Positions 2,087 to 51,500 of a stretch of 64,000 bases of DNA are shown here, one piece after another. How positions within the stretch are numbered: the stretch's first letter is position 1; each line of letters opens with the position of its first letter. The position numbers and the translations under genes were made by a program. The notes under the pieces were generated by a model. The model did not search any database, was not told where the DNA came from, and saw nothing but the letters and a program-made list of their open reading frames with translations. This stretch comes from Eubacteriales bacterium (lineage in GTDB: Bacteria > Bacillota > Clostridia > Oscillospirales > CAG-272), in contig JAZKYZ010000064.1 of assembly GCA_045612385.1 (NCBI GenBank), positions 196-64,195 of the forward strand, written 5' to 3'.

Positions 2087-2869
2087 TTATTTCAGAGCAT
2101 CAATATTCAAACCAACATTGTATTTTTCAGCAAGCGCAGTGAGCGTGCCATCGGCATATTTATCTTTCAAAAACTTGTCAAGAAGAGGCTTGATGTCGCT
2201 ATTTTGACGAAGTCCAACAGCAAAGATTTCATCCCCATAACTTGCACCTTCCAAAATCTCAAGGTCTTGATATATCCCTTTGCCGACAGAGTTTTGCGCC
2301 AAAGTAATATCAACAATTGCTACGTCACTTGTACCCGCAGATACTTCAGTCAGGGCATCAATCATTGTACCCACTTTGGCAATGTTTTTGGCTCCAATGG
2401 TCTCTTCGGCAACCGTTGCGCCAGCAGAACCACCTTCGACAGCAATTTTCGCATTCTTCACGTCATTTGCAGTAAGGGTAGATGCTTTATTTACAACAGC
2501 CACCTGAGCATTCTTCGCATAGGACACAGAGAAATCTATACTCTGAGCGAGTTTCTCCGTCGCAGTCATACCATTCCAAATGAGGTCGATTTGATTTGTT
2601 TTAAGCTCGGCCGTCTTGTTATCCCAATCAATGATGACCAACTGACAGTTTACACCAAGAGATTCAGCAAACATCATAGCCAGTTCTGCATCAAAACCGG
2701 TCCACTGATCATTTTCATCAAGATAATCCATAGGGGGATAAACTGTAATGCCGACTACAAGTTTGTTTGCGTTTTGTATCGCAGTAACATCACTGCTTTG
2801 TGGCATACAGGATACCATAAAGGAAAGTACGGTGATTACGATAAGAAGAAGGGTAAGAAGTTTTTTCAT
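2087..2869 (-). CDS. Amino-acid ABC substrate-binding lipoprotein (SBP family 3)
   Basis: Signal peptide with lipobox-like ...FMVSC, and a family-3 SBP-like body (DLIWNGMT..., VDITLAQ). Confidence 0.85.
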   Translation of the reverse strand: MKKLLTLLLIVITVLSFMVSCMPQSSDVTAIQNANKLVVGITVYPPMDYLDENDQWTGFDAELAMMFAESLGVNCQLVIIDWDNKTAELKTNQIDLIWNGMTATEKLAQSIDFSVSYAKNAQVAVVNKASTLTANDVKNAKIAVEGGSAGATVAEETIGAKNIAKVGTMIDALTEVSAGTSDVAIVDITLAQNSVGKGIYQDLEILEGASYGDEIFAVGLRQNSDIKPLLDKFLKDKYADGTLTALAEKYNVGLNIDALK

Positions 2870-2930
2870 TTTTGTTTCTCGCTTTCTGTTACTTCACTGA
2901 TTTAGCACTTTATCATACTAAAGTGTTACT

Positions 2931-2959
2931 ATTATACTCCATACAAATTTAAATGTCAA
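2931..2959 (-). promoter_or_regulatory. Sigma-A-type promoter for the amino-acid ABC operon
   Basis: Minus strand reads TTGACA, 17 nt, TATAAT (tgtcaa at 2954-2959, attata at 2931-2936). Confidence 0.6.
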
Positions 2960-3202
2960 GAGGTTTTTTGAATTTTTTGATTTTTTTCATAAGACACCTT
3001 GCATAGACGAGGATTTAGGCTAAAATGCTCAAAAAAGTGATAATCATACGAGTGTAAACTGCGATATGTAAAAATAGGAAGAAATGGATGATCTTCCATC
3101 TGTAGTCGCAGAGAATGATAAAATTAAAAGGGTACTGTGAAAACACAATACCCTTCGGTTTTATTTGGTTATGTTTATATGGAAGGCTACTTGTCATTCT
3201 AA

Positions 3203-5936: not shown

Positions 5937-6034
5937 AGTACAATCTCCTTTTTTTGTTTTATAGTTGTTATATTTTGAATTTTATCACATTTACAGGGAT
6001 ATGTCAATACTTTAGGAAGTATATTCCAAAGTAA

Positions 6035-6346
6035 GGCGAATATACCTACACCCTGCGTCTAACAAGCAAGCTTGTCGAACTTCGGGTGGGGTATGCGAAC
6101 CTTCGCATACGTAAAACGTATGCAAGGTCGAATCTGGAGGGTAGACAAAAAAAGAGAAGCACCGTTTTGGTGCTTGACCGAAAGGGTTTTCGCCTGAGGC
6201 GAATATACCCACACCCTGCGTCTGACAAGCGAGCTTGTCGAACTTCGGGTGGGGTATGCGAACCTTCGCATACGTAAAACGTATGCAAGGTCGAATCTGG
6301 AGGGTAGACCAAAAAAGAGAGGCACCTATTTGGTGCCTCTCTTTTT
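6035..6346. repeat. Two tandem ~163-bp units immediately 3' of tRNA-Arg
   Basis: GGCGAATATACC...GGTATGCGAACCTTCGCATACGTAAAACGTATGCAAGGTCGAATCTGGAGGGTAGAC starts at 6035 and again at 6198. Each copy ends in an A-run plus a GCACC/GGTGC hairpin. Confidence 0.9.
6311..6346 (-). terminator. Intrinsic (bidirectional) terminator after tRNA-Arg
   Basis: AAAAAAGAGAGGCACC-TATTT-GGTGCCTCTCTTTTTT lies directly adjacent to the tRNA CCA end. Confidence 0.8.
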
Positions 6347-6423
6347 TGGCCTACCCGAAAGGATTCGAACCTTCGGCCTTCAGAGTCGGAGTCTGACGCG
6401 CTATCCAGCTGTGCCACGGGTAG
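6347..6423 (-). tRNA. tRNA-Arg (anticodon CCG)
   Basis: Hand-folded cloverleaf. Acceptor CTACCCG/CGGGTAG, anticodon stem TCAGA/TCTGA with loop CTCCGAC, T-arm GAAGG-TTCGAAT-CCTTT, encoded CCA. Confidence 0.85.
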
Positions 6424-16103: not shown

Positions 16104-16376
16104 AGGTTTTCAAACATAAGAAACTGGTAAGTCATTATGTTAACAAAACGAACCCTTTACTTATCAATGTGCTCCATAGTGCATTTTACACAGTCGAAAT
16201 TTTCTAGTGCGTCCACACCGAAAGGGCTGATGATATACCAGTAAAAAAGTGCAACTTGTAAAAGGGTACTTCGGTCAGGCGATGATTAACAAGGCGCACG
16301 CCAACGGCAGCATTTGTAACGATTAGATTTTAAAACTGTCCTTTAGAGTATCTCCCTATAGGATACGACTTTTTTC

Positions 16377-16653
16377 GTGCGGACCATGTCGCTCGTTAAG
16401 AAAACAGTTGATAACTGTTTTTAGAGCGAAGACCGAGAACTATGTTCGAGGTCTGTCCCGTCGGAGCCCAAGCAAAAAGAGCACCACAAGGGTGTTTTTT
16501 AGTGCGGACGATGTCGCTCGTTAAGAAAACAGTTGATAACTGTTTTTAGTGCGAAGACCGAAGACTATGTATGAGGTCTGTCCCGTCGGAGCCCAAGCAA
16601 AAAGAGCACCACAAGGGTGCTCTTTAGTGCTTGGTGCGGACGACGGGACTTGA
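16377..16653. repeat. Two tandem 125-bp units plus a terminal 22-nt tRNA-Leu 3' fragment
   Basis: Units start at 16377 and 16502 with GTGCGGAC(C/G)ATG (tRNA-Leu 3'-end-like). Each ends with the AAAAAGAGCACC-ACAA-GGGTG hairpin. A third start at 16632 is the perfect tRNA 3' end copy. Confidence 0.9.
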
Positions 16654-16752
16654 TTCTCCTCGCGAACTGCGCTCGTCGGTCAGTCGCGGCTCTGACAGTC
16701 CACCGGACTGTCATTCACTACCGCTCCCCTTCAAGTCCCCTCATCCAAACCA

Positions 16753-16785
16753 CACAAAAACACCCTCCGAAAATCGGAGGGTGTT
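16753..16785 (-). terminator. Intrinsic terminator downstream of the recombinase gene
   Basis: Minus strand reads ACACCCTCCG-ATTTT-CGGAGGGTGT followed by TTTTTGTG. Confidence 0.7.
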
Positions 16786-17059
16786 TCGCGTGGTGCACCA
16801 CTTTAAGCCTAAATTGAACCAAGTGTTCAGTTTGGGCTTTTTGCTTTTCTTATGGCTTTTTCGACGTCGGTGCTGACGGCGGTTTATGCCGCGAAAGACT
16901 CTTGACACGAGTAAGGGGGTGTGGTAGGCTTCATGCCATAGGCAAACAAACAGCCCCTCGGGGCTGGGTGGTTGGCTTCTTTGCCTTGCACCCACACTCC
17001 CGAGAGGCTCGTGTCAAGAGTACCGTGGAATAAATAGCCGTTAGCTTAATGTATGTGAG

Positions 17060-18538
17060 TTACCCCACATACATTTCAAGCTCCATTGTTTGTGCGGTGT
17101 ATATGCTAATAAAGCCTTTATAAAAAGAAAAGCCCTGACTTTCGTCAGAGCCGTTCTTAATGGGGCTATTGATGTAAATTTCAATTCTGTCATTATAAAG
17201 CACTAATTCTTTGATGAAAAGACTAACTATCATAGTAGCTTCAAGCATTAATGCTTCTTCGTAGTATTCACGGATAATGCTTTCGGGTACTTTTACAGCT
17301 GTTTTACTCTTTTCTATAAGCAATTCACGCTCTAACGCCTCTTGCTGTTCTTCAAGCTCGTGTAAGCGTTTTTTAGTGGTCTTTGAAACTATGCCTTGTT
17401 CAATAGCAGCCATAAGGTTATCTAAAGCAGTATCTATCTTGGATTTTTCTCTTGCAATTGTTTTCACTTTGGGATTATCGGTACAGTATTTATCTTGCAA
17501 TTTGAGCAGATTTTTCACGATTCCATTAAGCGTTTGCGGTTTAGAAAATTCTCGTGTAATAGCCGTTACGATTGCTTCTTCCAAGGCTTCTTTTGAGTGA
17601 ATTGCTTGCTCACAGCCGTTGTGATATACCTTTCTTCCGAGGCATTTATAATAACGCTTTATCTCTCCGTTTCTTGCCGTTCCCGTGTCGGAGCTGATAG
17701 GATGTCCGCAATATCCGCATCTCATTTTATGGCGAAATAGATATACAGTCTTTATGCTACGTTTACCGCCCTCGTTTTCTTTAGACTTTGCTCGTACAGC
17801 TTCAAATGTATGTGTAGGCACGATTTGAGGATACATATTATCTACTCTCTCGTCACCGTGGTAGTAAACACCGGAGTATTTCTTGTTTTTAAGTATGCTG
17901 TATATGGTATTTTTAGCGAATGGCTTTCCCTTGTAAAGTACGCCCTTTGCCGTTAATGCCTTTATAATATCCTTTACAAATACGCCGATAGAGTATTGTT
18001 CAAATATGAACCTTACTGTTTCGGCTTTTTCTTCGTCTATAAGTATTTTCTTATCGACAACCTTATATCCGTATGGCAATCCACCGCCTTGGTAATGTCC
18101 TTTAGCTCTATTCTCTCGCATACCTCTTTTTACTTTTTGAGATAAGTCGGCGGAGTAATATTGATTCATACCTTCAAGTAAACTTTCAAGTATAATTCCT
18201 TCGGGCGTATCGGGGATATTTTCCATAGCGGACAATACCTTTACGCCATTTTTCTTTAGCGTATTCTTATGTATGGTAGCTTCGTATTTGTTTCTTGAAA
18301 ATCTGTCGAGCTTATACACAAGAACGTATGTCCATTCTTTTCTTGCGCTATCTCTTATCATACGCTGAAAATCTGGGCGCATATCATTCGTTCCCGTCAT
18401 AGCTCTGTCGATGTACTTTGCAAGAATAAGAATATCTTTAGCTCTTGCAAATTCCTCGCATACTCGAAGCTGACCTTCGATAGATTGTTCAGTTTGGCTG
18501 TCACTTGAATAACGTGCATAGATTACTGCTGTTTTCAT
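17060..18538 (-). CDS. Large serine recombinase
   Basis: MKTAVIYARYSSDSQ... (resolvase catalytic Ser region), recombinase domain, zinc-ribbon CGYCGHPISS...YYKC and a coiled-coil C-terminus. AAAGGAG RBS precedes ATG 18538. Confidence 0.9.
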   Translation of the reverse strand: MKTAVIYARYSSDSQTEQSIEGQLRVCEEFARAKDILILAKYIDRAMTGTNDMRPDFQRMIRDSARKEWTYVLVYKLDRFSRNKYEATIHKNTLKKNGVKVLSAMENIPDTPEGIILESLLEGMNQYYSADLSQKVKRGMRENRAKGHYQGGGLPYGYKVVDKKILIDEEKAETVRFIFEQYSIGVFVKDIIKALTAKGVLYKGKPFAKNTIYSILKNKKYSGVYYHGDERVDNMYPQIVPTHTFEAVRAKSKENEGGKRSIKTVYLFRHKMRCGYCGHPISSDTGTARNGEIKRYYKCLGRKVYHNGCEQAIHSKEALEEAIVTAITREFSKPQTLNGIVKNLLKLQDKYCTDNPKVKTIAREKSKIDTALDNLMAAIEQGIVSKTTKKRLHELEEQQEALERELLIEKSKTAVKVPESIIREYYEEALMLEATMIVSLFIKELVLYNDRIEIYINSPIKNGSDESQGFSFYKGFISIYTAQTMELEMYVG

Positions 18539-18749
18539 TTTGGAATCTCCTTTTTTCTTTAGAAATTTGTCTTTCGGCAGGAGCGACCAAAACGGAAATG
18601 AAGGCGAGGTCAAGGAAATAGGCGAAAATATTGTATTTTAGGCGGCTATATAAAAATCATCAGCAATATTTTCACCCCTTTACCTCGGCGGCGTTTTCGT
18701 TTAAGCTCCACAACCGGCGAAAGATAAATTGTTTTTATGTCTACAGTTA

Positions 18750-18896
18750 TTACGGCGTATCTTCTTTGTTATCATCGTGAAAGAGATCTATAATGCGAGT
18801 AAGTAATGCGTTATAAAAAGCGTTCTGCTCGGCTTCGCTAAACTGCTTAATATCCATCTCATCGCATATAGTAATTTCGGGCGTTTCGTTTCTCAC
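18750..18896 (-). CDS. Possible 48-aa acidic protein upstream of the recombinase
   Basis: GGAGG, 7 nt, GTG. Translates VRNETPEITICDEMDIKQFSEAEQNAFYNALLTRIIDLFHDDNKEDTP. Not in the ORF track (under 60 aa). Confidence 0.35.
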   Translation of the reverse strand: MRNETPEITICDEMDIKQFSEAEQNAFYNALLTRIIDLFHDDNKEDTP

Positions 18897-19490
18897 TCGC
18901 TAACCTCCTTTTTGCTTGGTATAAAGAGGTTAACATATAAATCCCATCAAATCCACCTCTCAAGCTTTCTGCTTTTGCGATGCTACGGCACAGTTTTTAT
19001 TCGTCATTTTACGAGGGTGATTATTGAACTTACAGCGGTGGACAGTTTTAACCATTAGAGCCAAAACCATTGAAAATTATACTGAATTTTTATATACTGA
19101 TTATGACGTTTCGGATAACAACAACTTATTTGACAAGCAAATAAAAAAGCCCCTCTTTCGAGGAGCAAAAAACATAAAACCGTGACGGAGCAAACGCAAA
19201 AAGTTTAATCCACCAATTTAGCCGCCGACGGATAAAGCGGAGGTCTGTGCAAGCGGCTTAGCGCACAGCTCCGCTTCCGTTCGGCTTTGGTGGATTTCTT
19301 TTCTTGTCCGTTTGTTTTGCGCGAGGGCGTGTGCTTGTCTGGCGGCGCGAAGCGACGCCACTTGTATCAAGACAAGCACACGCCCTGCGCTCACGCTTAA
19401 ATCGTAGACTTATTTTTGTGGACGGATTTGATTCATATCATACCGATGAATTAGAGCATAAAAGCAATAGCGACGAGCCTAAGCTCGCCG

Positions 19491-19772
19491 CTAAAAACAG
19501 ATGTTTGCCGAATTTACGGAGTTGTTTTCTGTACATTGCTGCACAGGGAGGCAAAAGTTCACCTCCTGGGCATAATCACCATTCTGTGAATATTCGACAG
19601 TTGCAGGTGTGTGGCTGTCGACTTGGGGTGTATAGGCAATTATAGCAAGAGCCCATATTGTTATAAATGCGCTGAGGAAAATGGCCACAATTTTTAATAC
19701 TCGTCTTGTGGTTGATTTTTTTGAACGATCAATTTTTCTTTTTTTCGCCTTGTTAGGTTTGAAACTAAACAA
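19491..19772 (-). CDS. Doubtful small membrane-anchored protein
   Basis: Basic N-terminus plus one TM, but a TTG start without a clear RBS, embedded in structured non-coding sequence. Confidence 0.25.
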   Translation of the reverse strand: MFSFKPNKAKKRKIDRSKKSTTRRVLKIVAIFLSAFITIWALAIIAYTPQVDSHTPATVEYSQNGDYAQEVNFCLPVQQCTENNSVNSANICF

Positions 19773-20016
19773 TGCACCAACTAACTGTTTTATTAGCTCG
19801 CCGTATAACTAGGTCGCCGCAGCCTATAAGGACCGAGGGAGGATTGTATTATTCATACCTTCTCAACTTTGTTACACCGCTTGCGCGGAGGCTACGTCAT
19901 TTCTGCGTAGCTCTTGCGGTCACCCGCAAGTTCAGACTGTGCCTTCATCCGCATGGGATGCTCCGTGTCCAGTCGTTACACCTTCCCTAAAAGGGCTTGG
20001 CTCGGCATTTTCTGCT

Positions 20017-20655
20017 TTATATTATATATATATCTTCTTGCTGATATTCGATGTTTTTATTATACCCATATCTATTATAGTCGATAGACCAAATACATCC
20101 ATCTTCATCAGTACATTGTATAGAAAGATGCCTTGGGGAAGTTCCCTTATCTCCGCTCATATAAAAACATTGCAGTTCATTTTCAAAGTTATAGTAATTA
20201 TCGCTATATTTGCAATCCAAATTAATTTTGACCTGTTGTTTCGAAGTCAACAGTGCACATACGGCATCACCGCAAAAATGAATATCTGTTAAATCTCGAT
20301 TTCCAACATTAGTTATCTTGATTATATAGGCTTGTTCCTCATAATCCAAAACTTCTATACTCAAAACAACTTTAGGTCTTATTTCATACTTTCTACGCTC
20401 TTCTTCATTTTTTTGTTGCCAGAAATACAATAAGAAAGATGAAAATATTCCTAACGCAACTCCATAGTATGAAAGAGTGTCGATTTCAAGCGTTTTTTGA
20501 AACAATTCGGATTTTTCAGCCAAAAGACAAAATATGAAAGGCATTGATAAAATTACAACCACACAAAAAATTGTGAATAATGTTCTATAATTTCCAATAA
20601 TCCATTTTTTAATTTTCGGTACGATGCTAAACTTGTTTTTCGTTTCTTTTTTCAT
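20017..20655 (-). CDS. Hypothetical 2-TM protein with a soluble C-terminal domain
   Basis: 212 aa with two hydrophobic helices followed by a beta-rich Cys-containing domain. No family recognised. Confidence 0.55.
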   Translation of the reverse strand: MKKETKNKFSIVPKIKKWIIGNYRTLFTIFCVVVILSMPFIFCLLAEKSELFQKTLEIDTLSYYGVALGIFSSFLLYFWQQKNEEERRKYEIRPKVVLSIEVLDYEEQAYIIKITNVGNRDLTDIHFCGDAVCALLTSKQQVKINLDCKYSDNYYNFENELQCFYMSGDKGTSPRHLSIQCTDEDGCIWSIDYNRYGYNKNIEYQQEDIYII

Positions 20656-20705
20656 AATTAATATACCATGATGGAGCCGCCACGAGGGCGGCTCTGTTTT
20701 GTTGT

Positions 20706-23700
20706 TTAAAGTTTAATCCACATAGCTGGAACAACACCCTCGCCATCACTTATGGACGAATATCCATTATCATCAACAGTACCTGTGTTATAAACTACCA
20801 TTACAGAGTTTATATAATTTTTATCAGGTGAGCGAAGCCACCAATCTCCGTATCCATAACTTGATTCAGCCGTAGAAATCCAAGTACCAATTGCACGAGC
20901 GTAATCGGTAGTCTGCATTTTTCGGTTTGTATTACTTGCTAAGTCGTAATCGCTCTTTATTGCTTCTCGATAAGATAGTAGAAATACCTTGTCCTCGGTA
21001 TTTTCACAAGCATATGAATTATTGGAACTTTCTGTACTAGCGGCACTATTGTCGACAGTGGTGACTTGTATCAATTCTTTTTGAATTTCTCCAAAAGCTT
21101 TGTTATAAAATTCGTTATTAAGCCACTGCCTAACATCACTATCTTTATAATTGTTGTTTTTATCTTCATCGTAAGAATGGTCGTCTATAATACTGTCGCA
21201 AAGTATAAATGCTGATTCTCCATTTTCCGATAGAACTCTCCAACGAATTGGCTCTACCTTGAAATAATACGTTTCGCCTGCTGTTACCGCTTCATCATTA
21301 GAGAATTTATAGCCCAAGTTATACTGAGTAGAAACTATTTTAGCATAGTAAAAACCATCACTTCCCATATAATATCCTCGTTCATCTTTGGTGTTTGTTA
21401 TTTGAACACCGTCGGATTTAATGGTTTGAGGATATTCCCCGAAATATATGTATTCTCCAACTCTATAATAGCCACGCCAATAATACACCTCTAAAACCAA
21501 ACTTCCGTCACCGCTGATTTTACCGCTTAATTTACTAATGCCATTGTTAACATTTAATCCGTCAAATGTTTTTGATATTACTTGTGCCGTTGCGTCAGTT
21601 GCTCCAAAAAGATACTGCGTATCTACAAGCTCATATCCTGTTCTATCATTGGTTTGCTTGTAGTGCTTAACAATATAAGGAGTATCTTCATCTGCACTCC
21701 ACTTAGCAGTGTAAGTGACATTCTTTTCTGCATTGAAAGTGAAGGTCAGCGTATCGCAAACTTTAGTATCGCCTTCATACCAACCAATGAAGGTATATCC
21801 GGGATTTGAAGAAGCAACAAGTTTTACTTCACTTCCGATTTCATAATTGCCCCCATCGCTAACAAATCCTGCTTTGGGATTTTCCGTGGCGGTTGATATC
21901 GAGCAAGTATTAACAGCTATCCACATAGAAGGAATGACACCTATACACTCGGTGGTTGGTTTGCCCGATCCATCATAAATGTTTCCATTGCTGTATAGCA
22001 TTAGGACAAGTTCGCAGCTTGCGCCCGATGCTCCGGGAGAACTAGTCCATGATGCGTAGGCATAGTTGGTTCCCGACGAAAGTTCAAGTCCAATAGCTTT
22101 CGAAAAATCAGTAGCCATCCAATTATCTCTATCGGAATTATTTGGGAAATATTTGCGCAGATCCGAAGCTGAAATCAAAGACACTTTATTCTGATTTACA
22201 ATTTGAACGATCTGTTGTTGTAAAGATGTAAATGTCGTATTGAAAAATTCTTGTGTTAACCAACTGCGTATCTCGCTTGTTTCGTAGTTGTTATTATACT
22301 TACTATCATCGAATCTTCGACTATCTATTACACTATCGCACAGAATAAAGGCATTGCCATCTTTTTCGGAAAGAATTCTCCATCTAATCGGTTCGGCCTT
22401 GAAATAGTAGATATTGCCTTCTACAATATATTCCCCGGAAGAAAATTGATAATATTTGTCATAGCGAGGACCTGCCACAATTTTCGCATAATAATATCCG
22501 TCCGACCCAAGATAATATCCACGATTATCTACAGTTGTCGTTATTGTGACATAATCCGCCTTTAATGACTGAGGATATTCTCCGAAGTATATATATTGTC
22601 CTTCGCGATAGTATAGATCCAAGGTATAATAAACGTTGAGTACCAAAGTGCCATCACCATTAATATTGCCGGTCAATACACTCTTTTCAGCGTTGAAGAG
22701 ATATCCGTCTAATTCATCAGCAACAAATGTAGCTAAAGTATCGGTTGTTCCAAGTAAAGTTATTGAGTTAAACAATACCGAATTATATCCCGCCTTAGTC
22801 ATATTATCTTTATAGAAATTGACAGTATACGGAGTATCTTCATCCGCGCTCCACTTAGCAGTATAAGTAACGTTTTTTTCTGCATTGAAAGTGAAGGTCA
22901 GCGTGTCACATACTTTAGTATCACCCTCATACCAACCAATGAAGGTGTAACCGGGATTTGAAGAAGCAACAAGGCTTACAGAATTTTCGTAAGCATATTT
23001 GCCGCCCGAGGTTACAGTACCAGCCTTTTTGTTTTCTACGGAAGAGTTAATTGTATAAACGTCTCTCGTGTAGTAGACTTTGAGAACAAGTTTGCCATTA
23101 CCTACTATATTGCCACTAATTACGCTATTTGTATTTGTGAATGTAAAGTGTGCATACTCAGAGATAACAGCATTTGCGGTGGTATCAGTTATTCCTTCGA
23201 GAACGACAGTATCCACCTTGTCATATCCTGTTTTATTCTTATTTTCAAGATAATACTCAACAGTGAACTTCGTGTCATCGTTGGCAGACCATTTTGCCGT
23301 AAGAGTAACCGCATTTTCAACGGTAAACTTGTAGCTTTCAGTTTCGCAAACAAGAGAGTTTCCTGCATACCAACCGAGGAAGGTGTAGCCGGGGTTTGTG
23401 GTAGCAGTTACGGTGATTGTTTTGCCGTAACGATAAGCGCTTCCGCTTGTTACACTACCAGCCTTTGCATTCATCGCACGAGTGGTAACGGTATAACTAC
23501 TTCTCGTATAGTAAATTTTAAGGACTGCATCGCCTTCACCGTCGATATTTCCGCTTGCATTACTGATTGCGGCATAATAGGTGAAATGGGGATAGCTGTT
23601 TATCGTTGCGGTTGCGAGAGCATCTGTTGTTCCCATAAGAATATCGCTGTGGATAAGGTAGTAATCGTTGTTATCGATATTCTGATGATAGTACTCTACG

Positions 23701-26201
23701 GTATAGAAGGTATCCTCGTTTGCCGACCACTTTGCAACAAGAGAAATGTTTCTCGTAGGCATAAACGTATATGCAAGGTCTCCGCTGACGAGAGCGTTTC
23801 CTTCATACCATCCGAGCCAAGTATATCCGGCTTTAACGGTTGCGGTTACAGTGATTTCGTTACCATAAACTTTGGTAGCTCCCGACGTAACAGAACCGCC
23901 CTTTGTGTTTTCCGCAGAGGTTGTTACGGTGTAGCTGTTTCTGTCATAGTAAACCTTGAGAACGAGAGTTCCTTCGCCATCAATATTTCCGCTTGTAGTA
24001 CTCTTTGACGAATTGAACTTAAAGTGTTCAAAGGTCTTGGGACTTACCGATGCGGTTGTATCGGTTGTGCCTGCAAGATTTTCGGTTTCCAAGTTAAGTA
24101 TATCATAGCCGTTTTTGTTGGAATTTTCGAAGTAATATTCTACCTTGTAGGGAGTATTTGTGTTTGCCTTGAAGTTAGCAACGAAGCTAAGGTTCTCGGT
24201 TCTACCCAAAATCTTTACGTTAAGGGTAGGCTCTGTAACTCCCTCGTAAGTCCAACCAAGGAAGGTGTATCCTATCTTTGTAGGATTGATAAGCGTAAAT
24301 TCGCTTTCGATGGTATAGGTTGTGGGGTTCTTACCGTCAACTGTACCGCCGTTAAGATTATACTCGATATCGTAAAGAACGAGATCCCAAACGGCAACTA
24401 AGTTCATATCGGTGGTAAGATTATATTTACCGCCTGTTACAAAGTTTGTTCCGTCAGACCAGCCCGTAAAGGCGTGTCCTGCGTATTCGGGCGTGGGAAG
24501 AATTATTTCTGCATCATAATCAATCGGGATTTCGGTTTTGTCCACAGTTCCGCCAATAGCATCAAGATAAATCTTGAAGGAATCAGCTTTCCAATTTGCG
24601 GTAAAGGAAAGCGCACCTATAGAGTCGTTAATGCTGACGTTAAGAGTGGGCTCGGTAACTCCATCATAAGTCCAGCCGAGGAAGGTATAACCCGTTCTTG
24701 TAGGATTGATAAGCATAAATTCACTCTCGATGGTGTAAGTCGTTGGATTTGTTCCATCTACAATACCACCGTTAAGCGTATAGCCGATATCATAGCTTAC
24801 AGCATCCCATTTTGCAACAAGATTTACGTTCTTGCTTGTTTTCCAAGCACCGCTTACGTAAGGAGTTGTATCCTCATACCAACCTGCAAAGCTATATCCC
24901 GTCTTTGTGGGGGTAGGGAGCGTAATATTTGCATCATAGGTAGCAGTTTCATTTTCATAGCTTTCGTTGCCACCGTTGGTGTTAAAGGTTACGGTATAGG
25001 TGTTAGCCACCCAATTTGCAACGTAGCTTCTGTTGCCAATGCTTCCACTTGCGATCTCAAGAGCAAGCGTAGGTTTGTTAACGTATGTTCCCGTCCAACC
25101 GAGGAAGGTGTAACCGGTCTTTTCGGGAGTTGAAAGCGTAATGTTTTCGCTTACAAAATTGTATGTTGTGGGATTGGCGGTAGAGAGTGTGCCACCGTCA
25201 AGGTCGTATTCGATTTCATAGTTAATAAGCGACCATTTTGCTACAAGGGTAACGTCGGAATCGCCCTTCCAGATACCGTTTCCAAAAAGGTCGTTGCCAA
25301 GGTACCAGCCGTCAAAACTATATCCCGTGCGAGTAGGTATTTCAAGCGTATAGTTAATATCATAGACAACGCCTGTTTCCTCGTGTGCAACAGTACCGCC
25401 GTTTACATCGTAGGTAATTACGTACTCGTTTGCGAGCCAAATGGCAGAAATTGTTTCGTTTTTAGTGATAGGCGCAGTAAAATCATAACTCCAGCCCGAA
25501 AGAGTATATCCCTTTTTATAGGTATCTGGAGCTGACACAAGAGAGCCTTCTTCAATAATCACGGCTTCTGCAGTAGTGCCACCGTCTGTGTCAAACATTA
25601 CAGTGTACATAGGTCTACGACGGATATTCAACTTATACATCTCGGATTGACCGTTCTCAGCCGTAACGAGAGCGTAGTAAACGTTGTCACCGATTTCCAA
25701 AGGAGCAACCTTGCTGGAAATAGTAGTGTTTCCGTAAATATCGCTCGTTAAAGTCCAAGAGCTTTTAGAGTTTATAGTTACCTTTGTACCGAGCGAAAAT
25801 GCCTCGGTTGAGTTAGAAACCGTTATGGAATACTCGGTGTCGGATATCTTAGTAAATCCATCAAACTCAGCCTCAACGCCTTGAACCGATTCCGAACTCG
25901 TCCATTTAGCATAAACGGACATATTTTCGGAGAGCGGAGCATCAAGGAGAGAATTGGCGGTGAAGGGCTTGTTCCAAACGTCCTTATCCCAATACCAACC
26001 GTCGAAGACGTGCCCTTCTTTAATAGGATCATTCGGTATCTTGATGGTTTCCTTTCCGCTTGTGTTAACGGTTGCGTAAATTTCACCGTCAACAACAAAG
26101 TCAACCTTGAATTCGACTTTTCCGCAAGATGCAAGTCCGAGCGTTATGCCAAGGACGAGTGTCAAGCAAAAAAGAGCAGACAGTAGCTTTTTCATAAGCA
26201 A
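20706..26201 (-). CDS. Giant surface lipoprotein (1831 aa) with many Listeria-Bacteroides repeats and two GEYPQ...EPIRWR (DUF6273-like) domains
   Basis: Signal peptide plus lipobox LASCGK. More than 15 copies of the GY(T/S)FxGWY...W repeat. Two YIYFGEYPQ...EPIRWR(I/V)LS modules. Confidence 0.9.
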   Translation of the reverse strand: MLMKKLLSALFCLTLVLGITLGLASCGKVEFKVDFVVDGEIYATVNTSGKETIKIPNDPIKEGHVFDGWYWDKDVWNKPFTANSLLDAPLSENMSVYAKWTSSESVQGVEAEFDGFTKISDTEYSITVSNSTEAFSLGTKVTINSKSSWTLTSDIYGNTTISSKVAPLEIGDNVYYALVTAENGQSEMYKLNIRRRPMYTVMFDTDGGTTAEAVIIEEGSLVSAPDTYKKGYTLSGWSYDFTAPITKNETISAIWLANEYVITYDVNGGTVAHEETGVVYDINYTLEIPTRTGYSFDGWYLGNDLFGNGIWKGDSDVTLVAKWSLINYEIEYDLDGGTLSTANPTTYNFVSENITLSTPEKTGYTFLGWTGTYVNKPTLALEIASGSIGNRSYVANWVANTYTVTFNTNGGNESYENETATYDANITLPTPTKTGYSFAGWYEDTTPYVSGAWKTSKNVNLVAKWDAVSYDIGYTLNGGIVDGTNPTTYTIESEFMLINPTRTGYTFLGWTYDGVTEPTLNVSINDSIGALSFTANWKADSFKIYLDAIGGTVDKTEIPIDYDAEIILPTPEYAGHAFTGWSDGTNFVTGGKYNLTTDMNLVAVWDLVLYDIEYNLNGGTVDGKNPTTYTIESEFTLINPTKIGYTFLGWTYEGVTEPTLNVKILGRTENLSFVANFKANTNTPYKVEYYFENSNKNGYDILNLETENLAGTTDTTASVSPKTFEHFKFNSSKSTTSGNIDGEGTLVLKVYYDRNSYTVTTSAENTKGGSVTSGATKVYGNEITVTATVKAGYTWLGWYEGNALVSGDLAYTFMPTRNISLVAKWSANEDTFYTVEYYHQNIDNNDYYLIHSDILMGTTDALATATINSYPHFTYYAAISNASGNIDGEGDAVLKIYYTRSSYTVTTRAMNAKAGSVTSGSAYRYGKTITVTATTNPGYTFLGWYAGNSLVCETESYKFTVENAVTLTAKWSANDDTKFTVEYYLENKNKTGYDKVDTVVLEGITDTTANAVISEYAHFTFTNTNSVISGNIVGNGKLVLKVYYTRDVYTINSSVENKKAGTVTSGGKYAYENSVSLVASSNPGYTFIGWYEGDTKVCDTLTFTFNAEKNVTYTAKWSADEDTPYTVNFYKDNMTKAGYNSVLFNSITLLGTTDTLATFVADELDGYLFNAEKSVLTGNINGDGTLVLNVYYTLDLYYREGQYIYFGEYPQSLKADYVTITTTVDNRGYYLGSDGYYYAKIVAGPRYDKYYQFSSGEYIVEGNIYYFKAEPIRWRILSEKDGNAFILCDSVIDSRRFDDSKYNNNYETSEIRSWLTQEFFNTTFTSLQQQIVQIVNQNKVSLISASDLRKYFPNNSDRDNWMATDFSKAIGLELSSGTNYAYASWTSSPGASGASCELVLMLYSNGNIYDGSGKPTTECIGVIPSMWIAVNTCSISTATENPKAGFVSDGGNYEIGSEVKLVASSNPGYTFIGWYEGDTKVCDTLTFTFNAEKNVTYTAKWSADEDTPYIVKHYKQTNDRTGYELVDTQYLFGATDATAQVISKTFDGLNVNNGISKLSGKISGDGSLVLEVYYWRGYYRVGEYIYFGEYPQTIKSDGVQITNTKDERGYYMGSDGFYYAKIVSTQYNLGYKFSNDEAVTAGETYYFKVEPIRWRVLSENGESAFILCDSIIDDHSYDEDKNNNYKDSDVRQWLNNEFYNKAFGEIQKELIQVTTVDNSAASTESSNNSYACENTEDKVFLLSYREAIKSDYDLASNTNRKMQTTDYARAIGTWISTAESSYGYGDWWLRSPDKNYINSVMVVYNTGTVDDNGYSSISDGEGVVPAMWIKL

Positions 26202-26210
26202 TACCTCCTA

Positions 26211-26246
26211 AAAATACAAAAAGTGCGCCCGCAAAGCGAGCGCACC
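26211..26246 (-). terminator. Leader terminator (possible attenuator) just upstream of the giant gene RBS
   Basis: Minus strand reads GTGCGC-TCGCTTTGCGG-GCGCAC followed by TTTTTGTATTTTT, then AGGAGG and the ATG. Confidence 0.6.
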
Positions 26247-26375
26247 CCATTATGTACCTCACCTTGCCGCGACGCAATTTTCATAATATCTTAACTCAAG
26301 TATATGAAAAGGTGGGAGTACTAAAATGGCATAGTACACCCTTGAGTTAAGAATATTAAATTACGTCGCACTCTA

Positions 26376-26404
26376 ATTATAGCACACTTTTACAAAAAAG
26401 TAAA
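26376..26404 (-). promoter_or_regulatory. Sigma-A-type promoter for the giant surface protein gene
   Basis: Minus strand reads TTTACT, 17 nt, TATAAT. Confidence 0.55.
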
Positions 26405-26475
26405 TATTTTCAGGCGATTTATTACGCGCAAAAAAAGCGCAAGTCAAAACCTTTCGGTTCAACTTACGCTCATAG

Positions 26476-26560
26476 TGGTGCGGACGACGGGACTTGAACC
26501 CACATGAATTGCTTCACTGGAACCTGAAACCAGCGCGTCTGCCAATTCCGCCACGTCCGC
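26476..26560 (-). tRNA. tRNA-Leu (anticodon CAG)
   Basis: Acceptor GCGGACG/CGTCCGC, anticodon loop TTCAGGT, long variable arm TGAA-GCAA-TTCA, T-loop TTCAAGT, encoded CCA. Confidence 0.85.
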
Positions 26561-26770
26561 ATATTAAATTATGTCTTGTTTAATTTTGATTCGTCAAGAC
26601 CCTCGAATTGGAAGCCACGCTTCCAGCGCTGTCTGCAGTACGTACTCGCGAGCGAGTAGTACACAAGAATGCTTCTCATTCTTGCTTCGCCTACGGCTCG
26701 TCCGCCACGTCCGCATATTAAATTTTGTCTTGCTTCGCCTACGGCTCATTTGCCACGTCCACATTGACCT
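26561..26770. repeat. Partial duplications of the tRNA-Leu 5' end plus its upstream leader
   Basis: CCACGTCCGCATATTAAATT(A/T)TGTCTTG at 26551-26578 and 26705-26732. A degenerate third copy CCACGTCCAC at 26753-26762. GCTTCGCCTACGGCTC occurs twice. Confidence 0.85.
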
Positions 26771-42347: not shown

Positions 42348-43151
42348 ATGCCAATTCAATCCCTTTCGACCCTGATTCAGTCGAATATCGACCTTCGTCA
42401 CATTTCTGCTTTTTGTTTAAAATCGGAAAAAGGCTCGCTTGGCTCTGCTACGATAGACAAGCCTCGCCAGCGCTCGGCGCTTGTTTATGTAGACGGTGTC
42501 TTAACTGTGCAGTTTGCTAACAAAAAAGTCACCTATTCTACGGGCGATCTTCTCTTTTTCCCACACGGGGCAAGTTATTCGCTTTATTATAACGAAACCA
42601 CCACGCAATATGGTGTGAACTTTATTCTTTTGGATGAAAACGGCGAGGAAATTATCCCCTTTGATGTTCCTACGCTTCTTGCCGACAATACGCAGGATAG
42701 TCTGATTGTGGAGCAATTTGTCCGTTGCGTCAATATGTATCGGACGTCCACCAACCGTATTGCCCTCAAAGGTGAGGTGTTCTCGCTTTTTTCCACTGCG
42801 ATTGTTACATACACAACCAAAAAAGCTCCCGCAGGAATTCAACCTGCGATTGATATTATACGCAATAGTATTCACGACGAACTTCGCATTGCCGATCTTG
42901 CGCTTACTTGTGGTATGAGCGAAAGCACCTTCCGTCGGGAATTCCATCGTTATGCAGGTGTTAGCCCGAAACAGTACATTCTGGATCGTAAACTCAATAA
43001 AGCAAAGCAAATGCTTCGCTCTGGTTATTATCCAATCAAGGAAATATGTATGATACTCGGCTTTTTTGATGATGCTTATTTTTCCAAAATCTTCAAAAAG
43101 AGTACGGGAATGACACCAATGCAGTATGCCGAGAAGGCAGGAAAAAAATGA
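42348..43151 (+). CDS. AraC-family transcriptional regulator
   Basis: Cupin-like N-terminus and a C-terminal AraC HTH (LTCGMSESTFRREFHRYAGVSPKQY...GFFDDAYFSKIFKK). AGGAG RBS precedes ATG 42348. Confidence 0.85.
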   Translation: MPIQSLSTLIQSNIDLRHISAFCLKSEKGSLGSATIDKPRQRSALVYVDGVLTVQFANKKVTYSTGDLLFFPHGASYSLYYNETTTQYGVNFILLDENGEEIIPFDVPTLLADNTQDSLIVEQFVRCVNMYRTSTNRIALKGEVFSLFSTAIVTYTTKKAPAGIQPAIDIIRNSIHDELRIADLALTCGMSESTFRREFHRYAGVSPKQYILDRKLNKAKQMLRSGYYPIKEICMILGFFDDAYFSKIFKKSTGMTPMQYAEKAGKK

Positions 43152-43152
43152 T

Positions 43153-44118
43153 ATGGCTACGCTTATCCCCTCGTTTTATCCGGCATTTCGTTGCGACCCC
43201 TCTGCGTGTCATCATTCCTGTTGTATCGAATGGGAAATTGACATTGACGAGGAGAGCCTTGTTCGCTATCACGCGCGAACAGATGACTTGGCGAAGCATA
43301 TCTTGGCGCATATCGTAAATACGCCAACGCCTCATTTTTCCTTGTGCGAAGGAGAGAGATGTCCTTTCTTACAAGGAGATGGTCTTTGTTCCATTATTTT
43401 GGCAGAAGGGCAGGGAACACTTCCTGAAATTTGTCGGGAGCATCCTCGCTTTCGCAACTTCTACGGAGGAAACCTTGTTGAGTTATCTGTGGGACTTTCC
43501 TGTGAAATCGCAGTCACCCTTCTTCTAAAAGAAGAAAATCTTGATTTTCTTATGTCGGCAAACGATATGGATGCGCTCACTGACCTCGACAGTTTGTCTT
43601 TTGTTGAATTTGATGAAAAATTTGATACGCCAAACGAATACGATATCCTTTTTCTTCAAAAGAAATATCAGATTATTCGTTCCTTTTTGCGCTCCAACCT
43701 CTCGTTTGATGAACTGGCAAAAAACGCTCTTGACACGCTCGCTATCCATAATTACTGCGAGAATAGTTATCGTGCGCAACTGGCTCTCTCCACCCTTGAA
43801 ACCTTGAACACTGATTTTTCTACCCTTTTTCAGCGAGCATCAAACACAGAGGAATTAAAAAAGCAAGGAGAAAAATTGCTTTTAGCCGATAGCGAAAAGA
43901 AAAGGCTGTTGGTTATGACTTTTTTCCGTCACGCAAATACTGAGAGCTTTTATTCTATGGAAAGCGCTTTTGCTTTTTCCTTGTTCTTTGTCTCTCTTGT
44001 TGACGTTCTCATCTTGGAAATGAATATAGATAAGGTAGAAGCCATCCGTATTCTATCATCCGAAATCGAATACAGCCAAGAAAATACCGATATCCTGCTC
44101 GATATTTTTGATGTTTGA
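43153..44118 (+). CDS. FliB-family (flagellin lysine-N-methylase-like) Cys-rich protein
   Basis: FRCDPSACHHSCCIEWEIDID...CPFLQGDGLCSI resembles the FliB/YkgJ CxxCxxCC family. Confidence 0.55.
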   Translation: MATLIPSFYPAFRCDPSACHHSCCIEWEIDIDEESLVRYHARTDDLAKHILAHIVNTPTPHFSLCEGERCPFLQGDGLCSIILAEGQGTLPEICREHPRFRNFYGGNLVELSVGLSCEIAVTLLLKEENLDFLMSANDMDALTDLDSLSFVEFDEKFDTPNEYDILFLQKKYQIIRSFLRSNLSFDELAKNALDTLAIHNYCENSYRAQLALSTLETLNTDFSTLFQRASNTEELKKQGEKLLLADSEKKRLLVMTFFRHANTESFYSMESAFAFSLFFVSLVDVLILEMNIDKVEAIRILSSEIEYSQENTDILLDIFDV

Positions 44119-44519
44119 GGTATGCGAACTCCTCGCCTACGGCGACGAAGTTCGTTCGATACAGGAGCACAAAAAAAAGAAGGACAACCACGAGGGTTGT
44201 CCGCTCCTGCGGAGTAGACGCTTCGCCTACGGCTACGCTATATACCTCGCTATGCGAGGTATGCGAACTCCTCGCCTACGGCGACGAAGTTCGTTCGATA
44301 CAGGAGCACAAAAAAAAGAAGGATGACCGTTCGGTCATCCTGCGAAACAAATGTTTCGCATATAACGGTACGTATTTTTTGGAGAAGACGCTTCGCCTAC
44401 GGCTACGCTATATACCTCGCTATGCGAGGTATGCGAACTCCTCGCCTACGGCGACGAAGTTCGTTCGATACAGGAGCACAAAAAAAGAAGGACAACCACG
44501 AGGGTTGTCCTTCTTTTTT
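44119..44519. repeat. Three tandem units (139- and 170-bp spacing) immediately 3' of tRNA-Lys
   Basis: GGTATGCGAACTCCTCGCCTACGGCGACGAAGTTCGTTCGATACAGGAGCAC plus an A-run plus a hairpin starts at 44119, 44258 and 44428. The first copy begins 1 nt after the fliB-like stop codon. Confidence 0.9.
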
Positions 44520-44595
44520 TGGTGCTCCTGCGGAGAATCGAACTCCGGACACCTTGATTAAAAGTCAAGTGCTCTACCAGCTGAGCTACAGGGGC
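44520..44595 (-). tRNA. tRNA-Lys (anticodon UUU)
   Basis: GCCCCTGTAGCTCAGCTGGTAGAGCACTTGACTTTTAATCAAGG...GGAGTTCGATTCTCCGCAGGAGCACCA. Canonical D and T arms. Confidence 0.9.
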
Positions 44596-44614
44596 AAATC
44601 AATCACGCTTAAAT

Positions 44615-44643
44615 ATAATAACATAAAAGTTTTGCTTTGTCAA
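44615..44643 (-). promoter_or_regulatory. Sigma-A-type promoter of tRNA-Lys
   Basis: Minus strand reads TTGACA, 17 nt, TATTAT, about 19 nt upstream of the tRNA. Confidence 0.55.
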
Positions 44644-44784
44644 GGCTTTTTTTGCAAAAAAGGGAAAGTTTTTTTAAAAAATAGCTTTCGTGAAAAAGGG
44701 AATAAAAATGGATTAAAAAGTTTCTCCTCGCTAAAGTAGAAAAGAGAGCTTGCGCTAAATGGCAAACTCTCTTTTGCATTTATA

Positions 44785-46005
44785 TTATTCGAGTATAAAT
44801 TTTGCGAAGCTCTTTTTGCCTCTCTTGACAAGAACACCACCCTGAAGCGCATCCTCCGTAACGCAAGCGTAAACGTCGGAAATCTTTTCGCCATCTACGC
44901 TGACAGCCCCCTGCTGAATGGCTCTTCTGCCTTCCGATTTGGAGGGAACCATCTTGGCAAGAACGAGCAGGGAATTGATATCGACTTTACCATCGACAAG
45001 CATTTCCTTCGGTACTTCAACGGCAGGAGTAAGCTCGCTTGATCCTTGTGCAAAGAGCGCGCGAGAAGCGTCACGTGCTTTTGTTGCTTCCTCTTCGCCG
45101 TGAACAAGTTTAGTAAGCTCATAAGCGAGAATTTCCTTCGCCTCGTTGAGTTTCGCTCCTTCCCAAGAATCCATTGCATTGATTTCTTCAATCGGCAGGA
45201 AGGTAAGCATACGAATACACTTGAGAACATCTGCATCTGCAACATTTCTCCAGTACTGGTAGAACTCATAGGGAGAGGTCTTGTTCGGGTCAAGCCATAC
45301 AGCATTTCCAGCAGTTTTGCCCATCTTCTTGCCCTGCGAGTCGGTCAGCAGAGTAATCGTCATAGCGTGCGCATCCTTGCCGAGTTTACGACGGATCAGT
45401 TCAGTACCACCGAGCATATTCGACCACTGGTCGTCACCACCAAATTGCATATTGCATCCGTATTCACGGAACAGATGATAGAAGTCGTAGGACTGCATAA
45501 TCATATAGTTGAACTCTAAGAAGGAAAGTCCCTTTTCCATTCTTTGCTTATAGCACTCTGCTGTAAGCATTCTGTTAACGGAGAAGCAAGCGCCAACCTC
45601 ACGGAGAAGGTCGACATAGTTGAGCGAAAGAAGCCAGTCGGCGTTGTTTAACATCATAGCCTTGCCTTCGCCAAATTCAATAAATTTCTCCATCTGCTTT
45701 TTGAAGCAAAGCGCGTTATGCTCAATGTCCTCTTTGGTGAGCATCTTTCTCATATCGCTTCTGCCAGAGGGGTCACCAATCATTGTCGTACCACCACCAA
45801 TGAGCGCAATGGGCTTGTTGCCTGCCATTTGCAATCTCTTCATCAGGGTCAATGCCATAAAGTGACCTGCCGTAAGGCTATCTGCCGTACAGTCAAAACC
45901 AATGTAGAAGGTAGCCTTGCCTTCGTTAATCATTGTTCTGATTTCTTCTTCGTTCGTAACCTGCGCAATCAAGCCACGAGCGACGAGTTCCTCATAAATT
46001 TTCAT
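44785..46005 (-). CDS. tyrS: Tyrosine--tRNA ligase
   Basis: 406 aa with a KMGKT (KMSKS-type) motif and a C-terminal S4-like domain. Confidence 0.95.
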
Positions 46006-46036: not shown

Positions 46037-46298
46037 CAAAAACAAAAAGTCCTTGAGCATTACGCTCAAGGACGAATAATCGTGTTACCACCTTGATTCA
46101 CCTTTTTTTTACAAAAAAGGCCTCATTGACTACCAACATAGTCGTCTCCTGTAACGGGAAGCTCCCGTCGTAGCCTACACACCAAAATCGGCTTCGGTAC
46201 GCACTCAAAGAGGTATTCGCAAGAGATCCTTTGCGCCTCTCATCACCCGGCAACTTTCTGTGAAAGAACTCATCTTGTTACTATTTCTTATCTTCGCT
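46037..46298 (-). promoter_or_regulatory. T-box leader (tyrosine) regulating tyrS
   Basis: Minus strand carries the T-box sequence AATCAAGGTGGTAACACG, then terminator GTCCTTGAGC-GTAAT-GCTCAAGGAC-TTTTTG. UAC triplets are present in stem I candidates. Confidence 0.8.
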
Positions 46299-46305
46299 TT
46301 TCTCT

Positions 46306-51256: not shown

Positions 51257-51383
51257 TTTTCTAAAAAACGGCGATTTTTTCGCCGTTTTTTTGTTTTAGA
51301 TTGAACGAGAAAATTTGTCGAAACCTGTTGACTTTGATGTCTGAGTATGATATAATCAAAAATGTTAAGAATAACTCTATCTA

Positions 51384-51500
51384 CCAATATAAATTCATGA
51401 TTATGGTTTGAATGTTTCTACCGCACACCAAGATGCGACTATTGGGAATCACGGGGAAACTATTTTTATTCGCAGACCATAGGTCTGCTTTTTGCTTTTT
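51384..51500 (+). promoter_or_regulatory. Purine (guanine-class) riboswitch with terminator
   Basis: CCAATATAAATTCATGATTATGGTTTGAATGTTTCTACCGCACACCAAGATGCGACTATTGG matches the purine aptamer core, with C at the specificity position (GAC-UAU). Followed by GCAGACC-ATA-GGTCTGC-TTTTT. Confidence 0.8.

Follow-up and report, generated by a model that had tools for sequence, protein, structure and literature searches.

Tandem repeats at the 3' flank of tRNA and tmRNA genes in uncultured gut Clostridia, with a hairpin module at T-loop position 57/58

Genes for tRNA and transfer-messenger RNA (tmRNA) are classic landing sites of genomic islands, normally marked by a bare repeat of the gene's 3' end; islands of the Islander type at tRNA and tmRNA genes were reportedly treated by Williams in 2002. 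The closest published system to the one described here is that of the Dehalococcoides ssrA islands, which insert mid-T-loop, lie in tandem, have a conserved motif upstream of each repeat and encode a CcrB-like serine recombinase (PMC3146451). Islander-type islands provide a further case of a displaced tRNA or tmRNA fragment, the attR repeat (PMC4383910). We analysed 64 kb of contig JAZKYZ010000064.1 from a Eubacteriales bacterium (this whole stretch is called the window below), in which a first-pass annotation had noticed three short tandem units behind the tRNA-Lys gene. These units are real, tRNA-Lys-cognate, reduced and partly decayed members of a wider family of tRNA- and tmRNA-flank repeats in uncultured gut Clostridia, characterized by a hairpin module between positions 57 and 58 of a copied T-loop. 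The family is apparently undescribed, as no description of such units was found in the full-text literature.

Like the ssrA and Islander islands, the units repeat the 3' end of a gene from within its T-loop, stand in tandem behind the intact gene, have a conserved non-tRNA motif directly upstream of the repeats, and occur at both tRNA and tmRNA genes; remnants without cargo are known among those islands (cis-mobilizable elements, accretion). Unlike them, the units have a period of only 140-170 nt, with no integrase or cargo at any locus; the T-arm copy is split by a Watson-Crick-covarying module of ~75 nt, the tRNA 3' end is present in an additional, inverted copy, and a single module family serves at least 12 different tRNA species. 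A second point of comparison is provided by hairpin miniature elements that move as folded single-stranded DNA, among them the palindrome-associated elements derived from IS200/IS605, repetitive extragenic palindromes (REP) and bacterial interspersed mosaic elements (BIMEs) with RAYT, and integron attC sites. The units resemble these in being small and non-coding, in keeping structure over sequence with strict Watson-Crick pairing, in lying at the 3' ends of transcription units, and in adjoining a short fixed sequence (GTTCR) with no clear duplication. Their tandem arrays are mosaic, as those of BIMEs are, and the CGAAC...GTTCG of their first hairpin (H0, below) recalls the inverse-core and core boxes of attC, with a core that differs from GTTRRRY at position 4. 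Unlike hairpin miniature elements, they occur only at the flanks of tRNA and tmRNA genes and form chimeras with pieces of the cognate tRNA; in the DNA covered around the loci (not whole genomes), genes for TnpA, RAYT or IntI were not seen, and there are no cassettes of open reading frames (ORFs). Of the features of DDE-type miniature inverted-repeat transposable elements, inverted ends (GTGCTCCTG...CAGGAGC) are found in only one window unit (unit B, below), module ends are inverted (ATACC...GGTAT), and TTCG flanks P1/P2; no consistent target duplication of that type could be defined in the units.

The tRNA-Lys(UUU) gene lies on the minus strand of the window (44520..44595), as do the features of its array; it encodes its own CCA and has an acceptor-stem mismatch, C3·A70. 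A strong sigma-70-type promoter (44615..44643; TTGACA-17-TATTAT with TG) serves it and is the only promoter-like site upstream of the array on the strand of the units. Behind the gene follows terminator T1 (44481..44519), with the stem GGACAACC/GGTTGTCC and A and T tracts. The tandem repeat of three copies reported at first was confirmed, with a unit body of ~106 nt that is 99-100% identical between units A and B and a third copy, unit C, cut to 52 nt; the unit motif had 0 matches in shuffled sequence. Unit A (44381..44479) starts with the inverted acceptor strand GTGCTCCTG, followed by hairpin H0 (CGAACTTCGTCGCC-GTA-GGCGAGGAGTTCG), the P1 hairpin (ATACCTCGC-ATA-GCGAGGTAT) and a GCC-GTA-GGC hairpin, and its degraded 3' end (...GCGTCTTCTCCAAAAAA / CTTCTCC-AAAAAA) is without the acceptor strand. 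An extra hairpin, GCGAAACATTTGTTTCGC, and then terminator T2 (GGATGACC-GAAC-GGTCATCC plus a T tract) occupy 44311..44359. Unit B (44203..44309), the sole complete unit, comprises the inverted acceptor (44309..44301), H0 (44293..44264) with a direct copy of the T-stem and TTCG inside it (GGAGTTCG, 44271..44264), the P1 hairpin (44262..44242), a third hairpin and, at 44214..44203, a direct copy of the 3' strands of T-stem and acceptor, CTCCGCAGGAGC, which is a 12-nt exact match to the tRNA-Lys 3' end (44524-44535). Folding of unit B as DNA gave z = -4.3; with the shuffle result, this excludes a chance origin of the pattern. Terminator T3 (44171..44202) is a copy of T1 without its A tract. Unit C (44119..44170) stops after ...GAGTTCGCATACC, cut by the stop codon of a converging 330-aa ORF on the plus strand (43126..44118, TGA at 44116-44118; weak, sub-threshold match to PF03692, CxxCxxCC) that marks the end of the array. 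The earlier observations that a unit directly adjoins a stop codon and that each unit has its terminator-like hairpin (two of the form GGACAACC...GGTTGTCC, one GGATGACC...GGTCATCC) were thus borne out.

Other parts of the initial description required revision. Both of the ends ascribed to every full unit, GCTCCTG-TA and CTCCG-CAGGAGC, occur in unit B only, unit A lacking the acceptor strand and unit C being truncated; the exact tRNA-Lys acceptor/T-stem 3' end likewise holds for unit B and fails for unit A. For the start of the unit, likened to the 5' acceptor strand, an inverted copy of the tRNA 3' end is the better reading: GTGCTCCTG is CAGGAGCAC in reverse complement, and the tRNA 3' end, T1 and the following GTGCTCCTG make up one palindrome with arms of 41 nt. 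Nor is the interior unrelated to tRNA, for it holds the direct copy GGAGTTCG and an inverted copy, TCGAAC...CTTC; H0 is a 13-bp hairpin in which GGAGTTCG (the T-stem 5' strand plus TTCG) pairs with the upstream inverted copy CGAAC..TTC. Of the two hairpins proposed as mutually exclusive, the alternative one is not kept in the relative L005 (GGCAAGG / CATCGC; L-numbers denote individual loci from relatives or other genomes) and is therefore probably incidental. Degenerate tRNA-derived genes had been suggested; pieces derived from tRNA-Lys are indeed present, but the units are neither tRNA genes nor simple pseudogenes, having no D arm or anticodon arm and a foreign hairpin module in the T-loop. 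ARAGORN reported only the three real tRNAs of the window, and in the interval 43900-44800 the Rfam tRNA model, run in E-value mode, matched only tRNA-Lys itself. The C3·A70 mismatch is conserved in three relatives (L001, L003, L104); in the Lys units, the inverted copies GCTCCTG are fully complementary to the tRNA-Lys 3' strand.

Membership in a family was established by searching the pattern GTTCRCATACC-N24-54-GCCNNAGGCGAA over GTDB contigs, with one genome per species. The search returned 76 loci, ~62 of them from Clostridia-type gut metagenome-assembled genomes (MAGs), with ~14 expected chance matches. Host labels of the ~62 were Clostridia, Eubacteriales, Oscillospiraceae, Acutalibacteraceae and Ruminococcus MAGs, from ruminant and human guts. 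Matches lay on the tRNA strand, with GTTCG 75-107 nt behind the last tRNA of the operon; the isoacceptors included Cys, Glu-UUC, Glu-CUC, Arg-CCU, Arg-CCG, Gln-CUG, Gln-UUG, Tyr, Lys, Pro, Thr and Met (12 or more), and tmRNA genes also had matches behind them. Throughout the 64 kb of the window and ~0.5 Mb of loci, the module was confined to positions behind tRNA and tmRNA genes or, rarely, ahead of them, unlike the genome-wide extragenic dispersal of REP and BIME.

Alignment of 61 modules, with slid partners and 500 shuffles as controls, revealed the following order: the T-stem 5' strand and GTTCG; CATACC-P1; the internal loop GAAGATCG; P2 with a CUYG loop; CAGGCGNAG; P1' and GGTATMT; P3 (TTCGCC-NNA-GGCGAA); three T-loop nucleotides; and the T-stem 3' strand. 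Paired cells amounted to 90.4%, as against 28-47% in the slid controls, with 176 double-sided changes; 0 of the 500 shuffles matched the observed pairing values, and the CUYG tetraloop was present in 58 of the 61 modules. In a full unit, the inverted 3' strand of the acceptor stands just after the tRNA terminator and is followed by H0, a long hairpin in which the 3' strand directly copies positions ~47-57 (the T-stem 5' strand and TTCG), by the ~75-nt module (P1/P2/P3), by a direct copy of positions 58-76, which takes in what is left of the T-loop and the 3' strands of T-stem and acceptor and at times CCA, and by a terminator. The module is therefore placed between T-loop positions 57 and 58 of a copied cognate tRNA 3' half.

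The flanking pieces follow the local gene. The left piece tracks the local tRNA at position 57 (G or A), and its T-stem portion agrees with that tRNA at at least 4 of 5 nt in 27 of 33 units; the right piece tracks the loop (ATT, or ACT at tmRNA), begins at position 58, and matches the local tRNA over up to 16 nt, sometimes through CCA. At L003, where tRNA-Lys has a different T-arm, the unit is altered correspondingly. A covariance model built from the module alignment (R1) detected the window Lys units as weak members (unit A, 44369-44448, 19.4 bits, E = 7e-4; unit B, 44176-44278, 14.6 bits, E = 0.04), P1 being capped directly by ATA in what is a reduced variant; orthologous Lys units in relatives scored 16.4 and 12.9 bits. 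Two full-size members lie elsewhere in the window (6002..6273, minus strand; 104.9 and 71.7 bits), behind tRNA-Arg(CCG) (6347-6423). These carry T-stem and acceptor pieces specific to tRNA-Arg (CTACCC, GAAGGTTCG, CCTTTCGG), the second being truncated in P3, and share with the Lys units the string GTTCG-CATACC...GGTATAT and the GCC-NNA-GGCGAA hairpin. Arrays behind tRNA-Glu and tRNA-Arg genes have other insert types at the same T-loop position.

Some modules are much better conserved than the genomes that carry them. In several pairs of loci, modules were 88-99% identical while neighbouring orthologues were 60-77% identical in protein and 46-62% at 4-fold sites (near saturation). Further comparisons run in the other direction. 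At one and the same tRNA-Tyr locus, L046 and L054 have different module subtypes (68% identity). Between L028 and L053, identity at 4-fold sites of the flanks is 97% and that of the module only 89%, with terminator stems and H0 replaced and synteny stopping at the array. In the clustering, Cys, Arg, Glu, Gln and Lys genes from different MAGs had near-identical modules behind them; subtypes therefore do not track isotype, nor do they follow host phylogeny. Two chimeras, L047 and L086, have in the T-stem piece next to the module ATGGG from another tRNA-Arg type, whereas the inverted copy and the 3' piece are local. Such exchange, like the differences in number and orientation of units described next, has the look of mobility.

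Comparison of the tRNA-Lys locus among relatives with tyrosyl-tRNA synthetases (TyrS) 94-97% identical, as had been recommended at the outset, showed that unit number varies between close relatives. L005 has one A-type unit plus a fragment; L001 and L102 have one unit, with the whole tRNA module inverted; in L103 and L104 the unit is absent, the T-arm differs, and a tyrosine integrase converges on the tRNA with its C-terminus. The inverted block consists of promoter, tRNA-Lys, terminator and units (window 44520-44700, L001 11222-11560), as oriented relative to the TyrS and CxxCxxCC genes; the inversion is present in only some of the 95-97% relatives, and whichever way round the block lies, its array is truncated at the stop codon of the gene next to it. 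Hairpins of the Lys units show compensatory changes between strains (GTCGCC/GGCGAG versus GTTGCC/GGCAAG; CCTCGC/GCGAGG versus CATCGC/GCGATG). The interiors of units A and B are identical while their differing 3' ends are each orthologous to those of other strains, which points to homogenization within the array; near-identical tandem copies are likewise found at L044, L053 and L081. A 60-nt target duplication considered for L001 was rejected, the duplicated-looking flank GATACTCTC being a diverged inverted-acceptor piece.

The T-loop is an integration hotspot in this lineage, as seen at a tRNA-Leu island in the same window, among the relatives of its recombinase, and at L104. The island (16635-26560, minus strand; ~9.8 kb) fills the interval from tRNA-Leu(CAG) (26476-26560) to a 22-nt copy of that gene's 3' end, displaced to 16635-16659. 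Its cargo comprises an 1831-aa surface protein with Listeria-Bacteroides repeats (20706-26201), a 212-aa ORF and a 517-aa large serine recombinase (17060-18613); at its right end, an inverted T-arm-like piece and ...GTTCG... stand ahead of the repeat. Integrase and foreign cargo between gene and repeat, by which an att repeat is recognized, are thus present in the island, and the units do not have them. Eighty relatives of the serine recombinase (L105-L184; 44-90% identity) were collected, many lying 50-500 nt from tRNA genes and converging on them; the isotypes (Gln, Glu, Ser, Met, Lys, Arg, Ala, Leu, Ile) are so many that the recombinase clade must have been retargeted among tRNA genes. From the displaced tRNA-Leu 3' end, a repeat that starts in the T-loop, three Leu-type units follow (16370..16660, minus strand), with terminator, inverted acceptor/T-stem, hairpins and acceptor 3' strand; this is the same architecture without the R1 module. 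Two partial copies of the tRNA-Leu 5' end (GCGGACGTGGCGGA) were also seen at 26690-26765 (minus strand), each followed by GAGCCGTAGGCGAAGCAAGA / GAGCCGTAGGCGAAGC, between an upstream promoter and tRNA-Leu's own promoter; a 15-mer of these copies, AGCCGTAGGCGAAGC, recurs in the Lys units. At L104 (2836-3068), a 94% relative, tRNA-Lys has the same first 51 nt, a different T-arm (GGGATTCGAGTTCCC) and no unit, and the tyrosine integrase C-terminus (…LGHTSLEMVKRYLHL…) abuts it. The swapped T-arm together with the converging integrase suggests that the 3' part of this tRNA was replaced by an integrated element; L104 was accordingly rejected as an 'empty site', being occupied by an integrase-bearing element.

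Base pairing bears on whether the module acts as DNA or as RNA. In P1 and P2 together, 916 cells were Watson-Crick, 11 were G·U and 21 were A·C. Forward and reverse-complement strands folded equally well and had equal G·U counts, so that neither G·U counts nor folding energy showed an asymmetry by which to assign a strand. No promoters were found within units, each of which lies behind a strong bidirectional terminator. Rfam 15, in gathering and E-value modes, contained no family for the window or for 12 loci, its matches being hairpin look-alikes at the terminators, and its models of tRNA, tmRNA and mascRNA did not match the units. These results set the units apart from known structured RNAs and suit pairing under selection in DNA, as a hairpin or cruciform. 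Pointing towards RNA are the orientation of the units, which is invariably that of the tRNA, and the cloverleaf-like minimum-energy fold, with an acceptor-like closing stem, of several of them. At L048 (5340-5600), a full-length copy of tRNA-Gln, its 5' half intact and its T-loop holding a diverged module, stands downstream of the promoter and ahead of the intact tRNA-Gln and must therefore be transcribed. A similar upstream copy was seen at L052, before tRNA-Met.

We favour, with confidence evenly balanced between belief and doubt, the reading that the units are DNA-level footprints of a small, non-autonomous, T-loop-directed mobile element that were amplified locally, and that they are not tRNA genes and probably not genes for small RNAs. 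The hairpin module would be, or would once have been, a small mobile DNA that is not autonomous. Its insertion at the T-loop coding sequence would be the work of a recombinase or transposase with its gene elsewhere, probably with folded (hairpin) DNA as substrate, at the same T-loop sublocation that genomic-island integrases use. Insertions would survive only in dispensable copies of a tRNA 3' half, or where the event rebuilds the 3' end of the gene, and each event would therefore leave one cognate-flanked unit with a terminator behind an intact gene. Arrays would then grow, homogenize and erode through local unequal recombination; in the window, the inner part of the module has gone from the Lys units (P1 capped by ATA), A and B have been homogenized, and the array has been truncated at the adjoining stop codon. 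A bolder version is possible though doubtful: the units may represent an undescribed class of miniature mobile DNA that moves as a folded hairpin, targets the universally conserved coding sequence for the T-loop in any tRNA or tmRNA gene, and copies parts of its target in direct and inverted form on insertion, each copy being 'programmed' by its gene and the enzyme being encoded in trans.

Several observations weigh against mobility. No recombinase or transposase was linked in cis at ~60 loci; all-against-all clustering of 256 ORFs around units gave synteny clusters only and no recurrent family, and tblastn with the window serine recombinase and a tyrosine integrase found no match near units. 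The recombinase of the tRNA-Leu island was rejected as the mover, since the R1 module is present at 0 of its 80 relatives. In viral contigs, a first pattern gave 19 matches, all of them chance matches in coding DNA, and a second gave none; BLAST against phages and plasmids found no module copy, and among the loci there was neither an intact larger element with the module at its end nor an 'empty' unit. Paralogous modules within one MAG have diverged, with no sign of a recent burst (L048, L051, L054). High module conservation could equally reflect purifying selection on a function, and apparent conservation is inflated by the search pattern, which fixes 21 positions. Upstream copies such as that of L048 are necessarily transcribed. 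The distance from tRNA to module is suspiciously constant, which fits a defined small entity and not random deletion scars, and the reading gives no account of how the cognate pieces, above all the inverted ones, arose.

Of the rival accounts, the nearest to the units is one that the first-pass annotation had itself listed, att-site scars. On this account, the T-loop would have received large integrase-bearing islands or prophages one after another; each would have supplied a replacement 3' end of the tRNA and a terminator and later lost all its cargo, the module being simply the conserved arm of attP. The direct repeat of the tRNA 3' end does begin at position 58, as for integrases; the tRNA-Leu island of the same window, with its inverted T-arm-like piece and GTTCG, and the integrase at the swapped T-arm of L104 offer local examples, while Dehalococcoides provides a precedent for tandem repeats with cargo-less, cis-mobilizable remnants. 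The non-cognate T-stem pieces of L047 and L086 are what would be expected of an element-borne half-site. Yet an intact island or integrase lay between tRNA and unit at 0 of ~60 loci, nor was there foreign cargo, and the gap was always just 75-107 nt. Moreover, the module interrupts the T-arm rather than adjoining a contiguous core site, its hairpin covariation is unexpected for arm-type protein-binding sites, and it is absent from the 80 serine-recombinase-relative loci and from viral contigs. Because neither integrase nor cargo lies between tRNA and unit and a structured module is found in every unit, a plain scar is not the whole story, and we consider this account unlikely.

A structured non-coding RNA strikes us as still harder to credit. 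It would be a mimic of the tRNA top half, or a 3'-trailer, co-transcribed with the tRNA and serving as a processing signal, as a decoy for tRNA-binding enzymes, or as an antisense/mimic pair for the cognate 3' half. Position right behind the tRNA and always on its strand, strong covariation with conserved internal loops and CUYG tetraloops, the transcribed tRNA-Gln copy of L048, and module evolution far slower than that of synonymous sites in several pairs would all suit such a role. In their acceptor-like closing stem, their T-stem pieces and, in some, a cloverleaf-like four-way fold, the units also recall tRNA-like RNAs (the tmRNA domain, mascRNA, viral 3' structures); unlike these, their insert breaks the T-loop, there is no D-loop partner, and acceptor pairing is not conserved. 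G·U was not enriched over A·C in P1/P2 (11 versus 21 in ~950 cells), both strands fold equally well, and the units are promoter-less behind strong terminators. Acceptor-like pairing and the 3' acceptor strand are often absent (unit A, L044, L031), the pairing being present in 1 of the 3 window units and lost in relatives, and module subtypes are swapped between tRNAs and genomes, with no Rfam match; the tRNA-like small RNAs proposed initially are disfavoured on the same grounds. The least probable account is a non-mobile one, in which the units are a by-product of faulty replication and recombination where the terminator and T-arm of the tRNA are palindromic, through template switching, extension of the palindrome and unequal crossing-over, perhaps kept for the insulation that stacked terminators give to converging genes. 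The long palindrome formed by tRNA 3' end, terminator and inverted acceptor, the near-identity of tandem copies, arrays that reach up to the neighbour's stop codon in both orientations, and the inversion of the whole tRNA-Lys module between close relatives would all follow readily. Such errors cannot account for the presence of the same ~75-nt module, with conserved unpaired nucleotides, at 12 or more tRNA and tmRNA loci in dozens of species; they leave the imported T-stem pieces of the chimeras unexplained, and module comparisons suggest recent common ancestry across tRNA loci, against an independent local origin.

Whatever their origin, the units place a structured, conserved module at one precise nucleotide of a cognate T-arm copy behind most tRNA operons of a whole clade of gut Clostridia that are uncultured. 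A mobile module would represent an element specific for the T-loop, with flanks that adapt to any tRNA, and would bear on the retargeting of site-specific elements, on the plasticity of tRNA loci and on the assembly breaks that MAGs show there; one with a function as DNA or RNA would instead add a new accessory to tRNA operons. In either case, the units will mislead tRNA finders and those island-mapping tools that rely on tRNA fragments.

Some further observations concern DNA close to units. At L084, a 1.65-kb element (2745-4340) with ~25-nt inverted ends (CACTCTWAAGGACAGTTT) and a duplication, ATCCTT, sits in the loop of a tRNA-Arg terminator and encodes an XRE regulator and two small membrane proteins, with no transposase among its genes. 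Considered as cargo in a terminator loop, it was rejected as an unrelated element on account of its own inverted ends and 6-bp duplication; a solitary copy of its end occurs at 16333-16349 of the window. Gene-cassette arrays bounded by units (L053, L068) were also considered and rejected, there being one real case only and the other terminator matches looking generic. Behind the tRNA-Cys unit array of L053 (4380-5000) come small ORFs whose extended -10 promoters (TGTGCTATAAT) are nearly identical, and one small ORF is followed by another terminator and inverted-acceptor copy, as if a gene had been inserted into the array. Exact-protein look-ups with the window's own genes returned no record. 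Elsewhere in the window, a T-box leader (46065-46303) lies upstream of the tyrosyl-tRNA synthetase gene (44785-46005, minus strand), and a purine riboswitch lies on the plus strand at 51365-51461.

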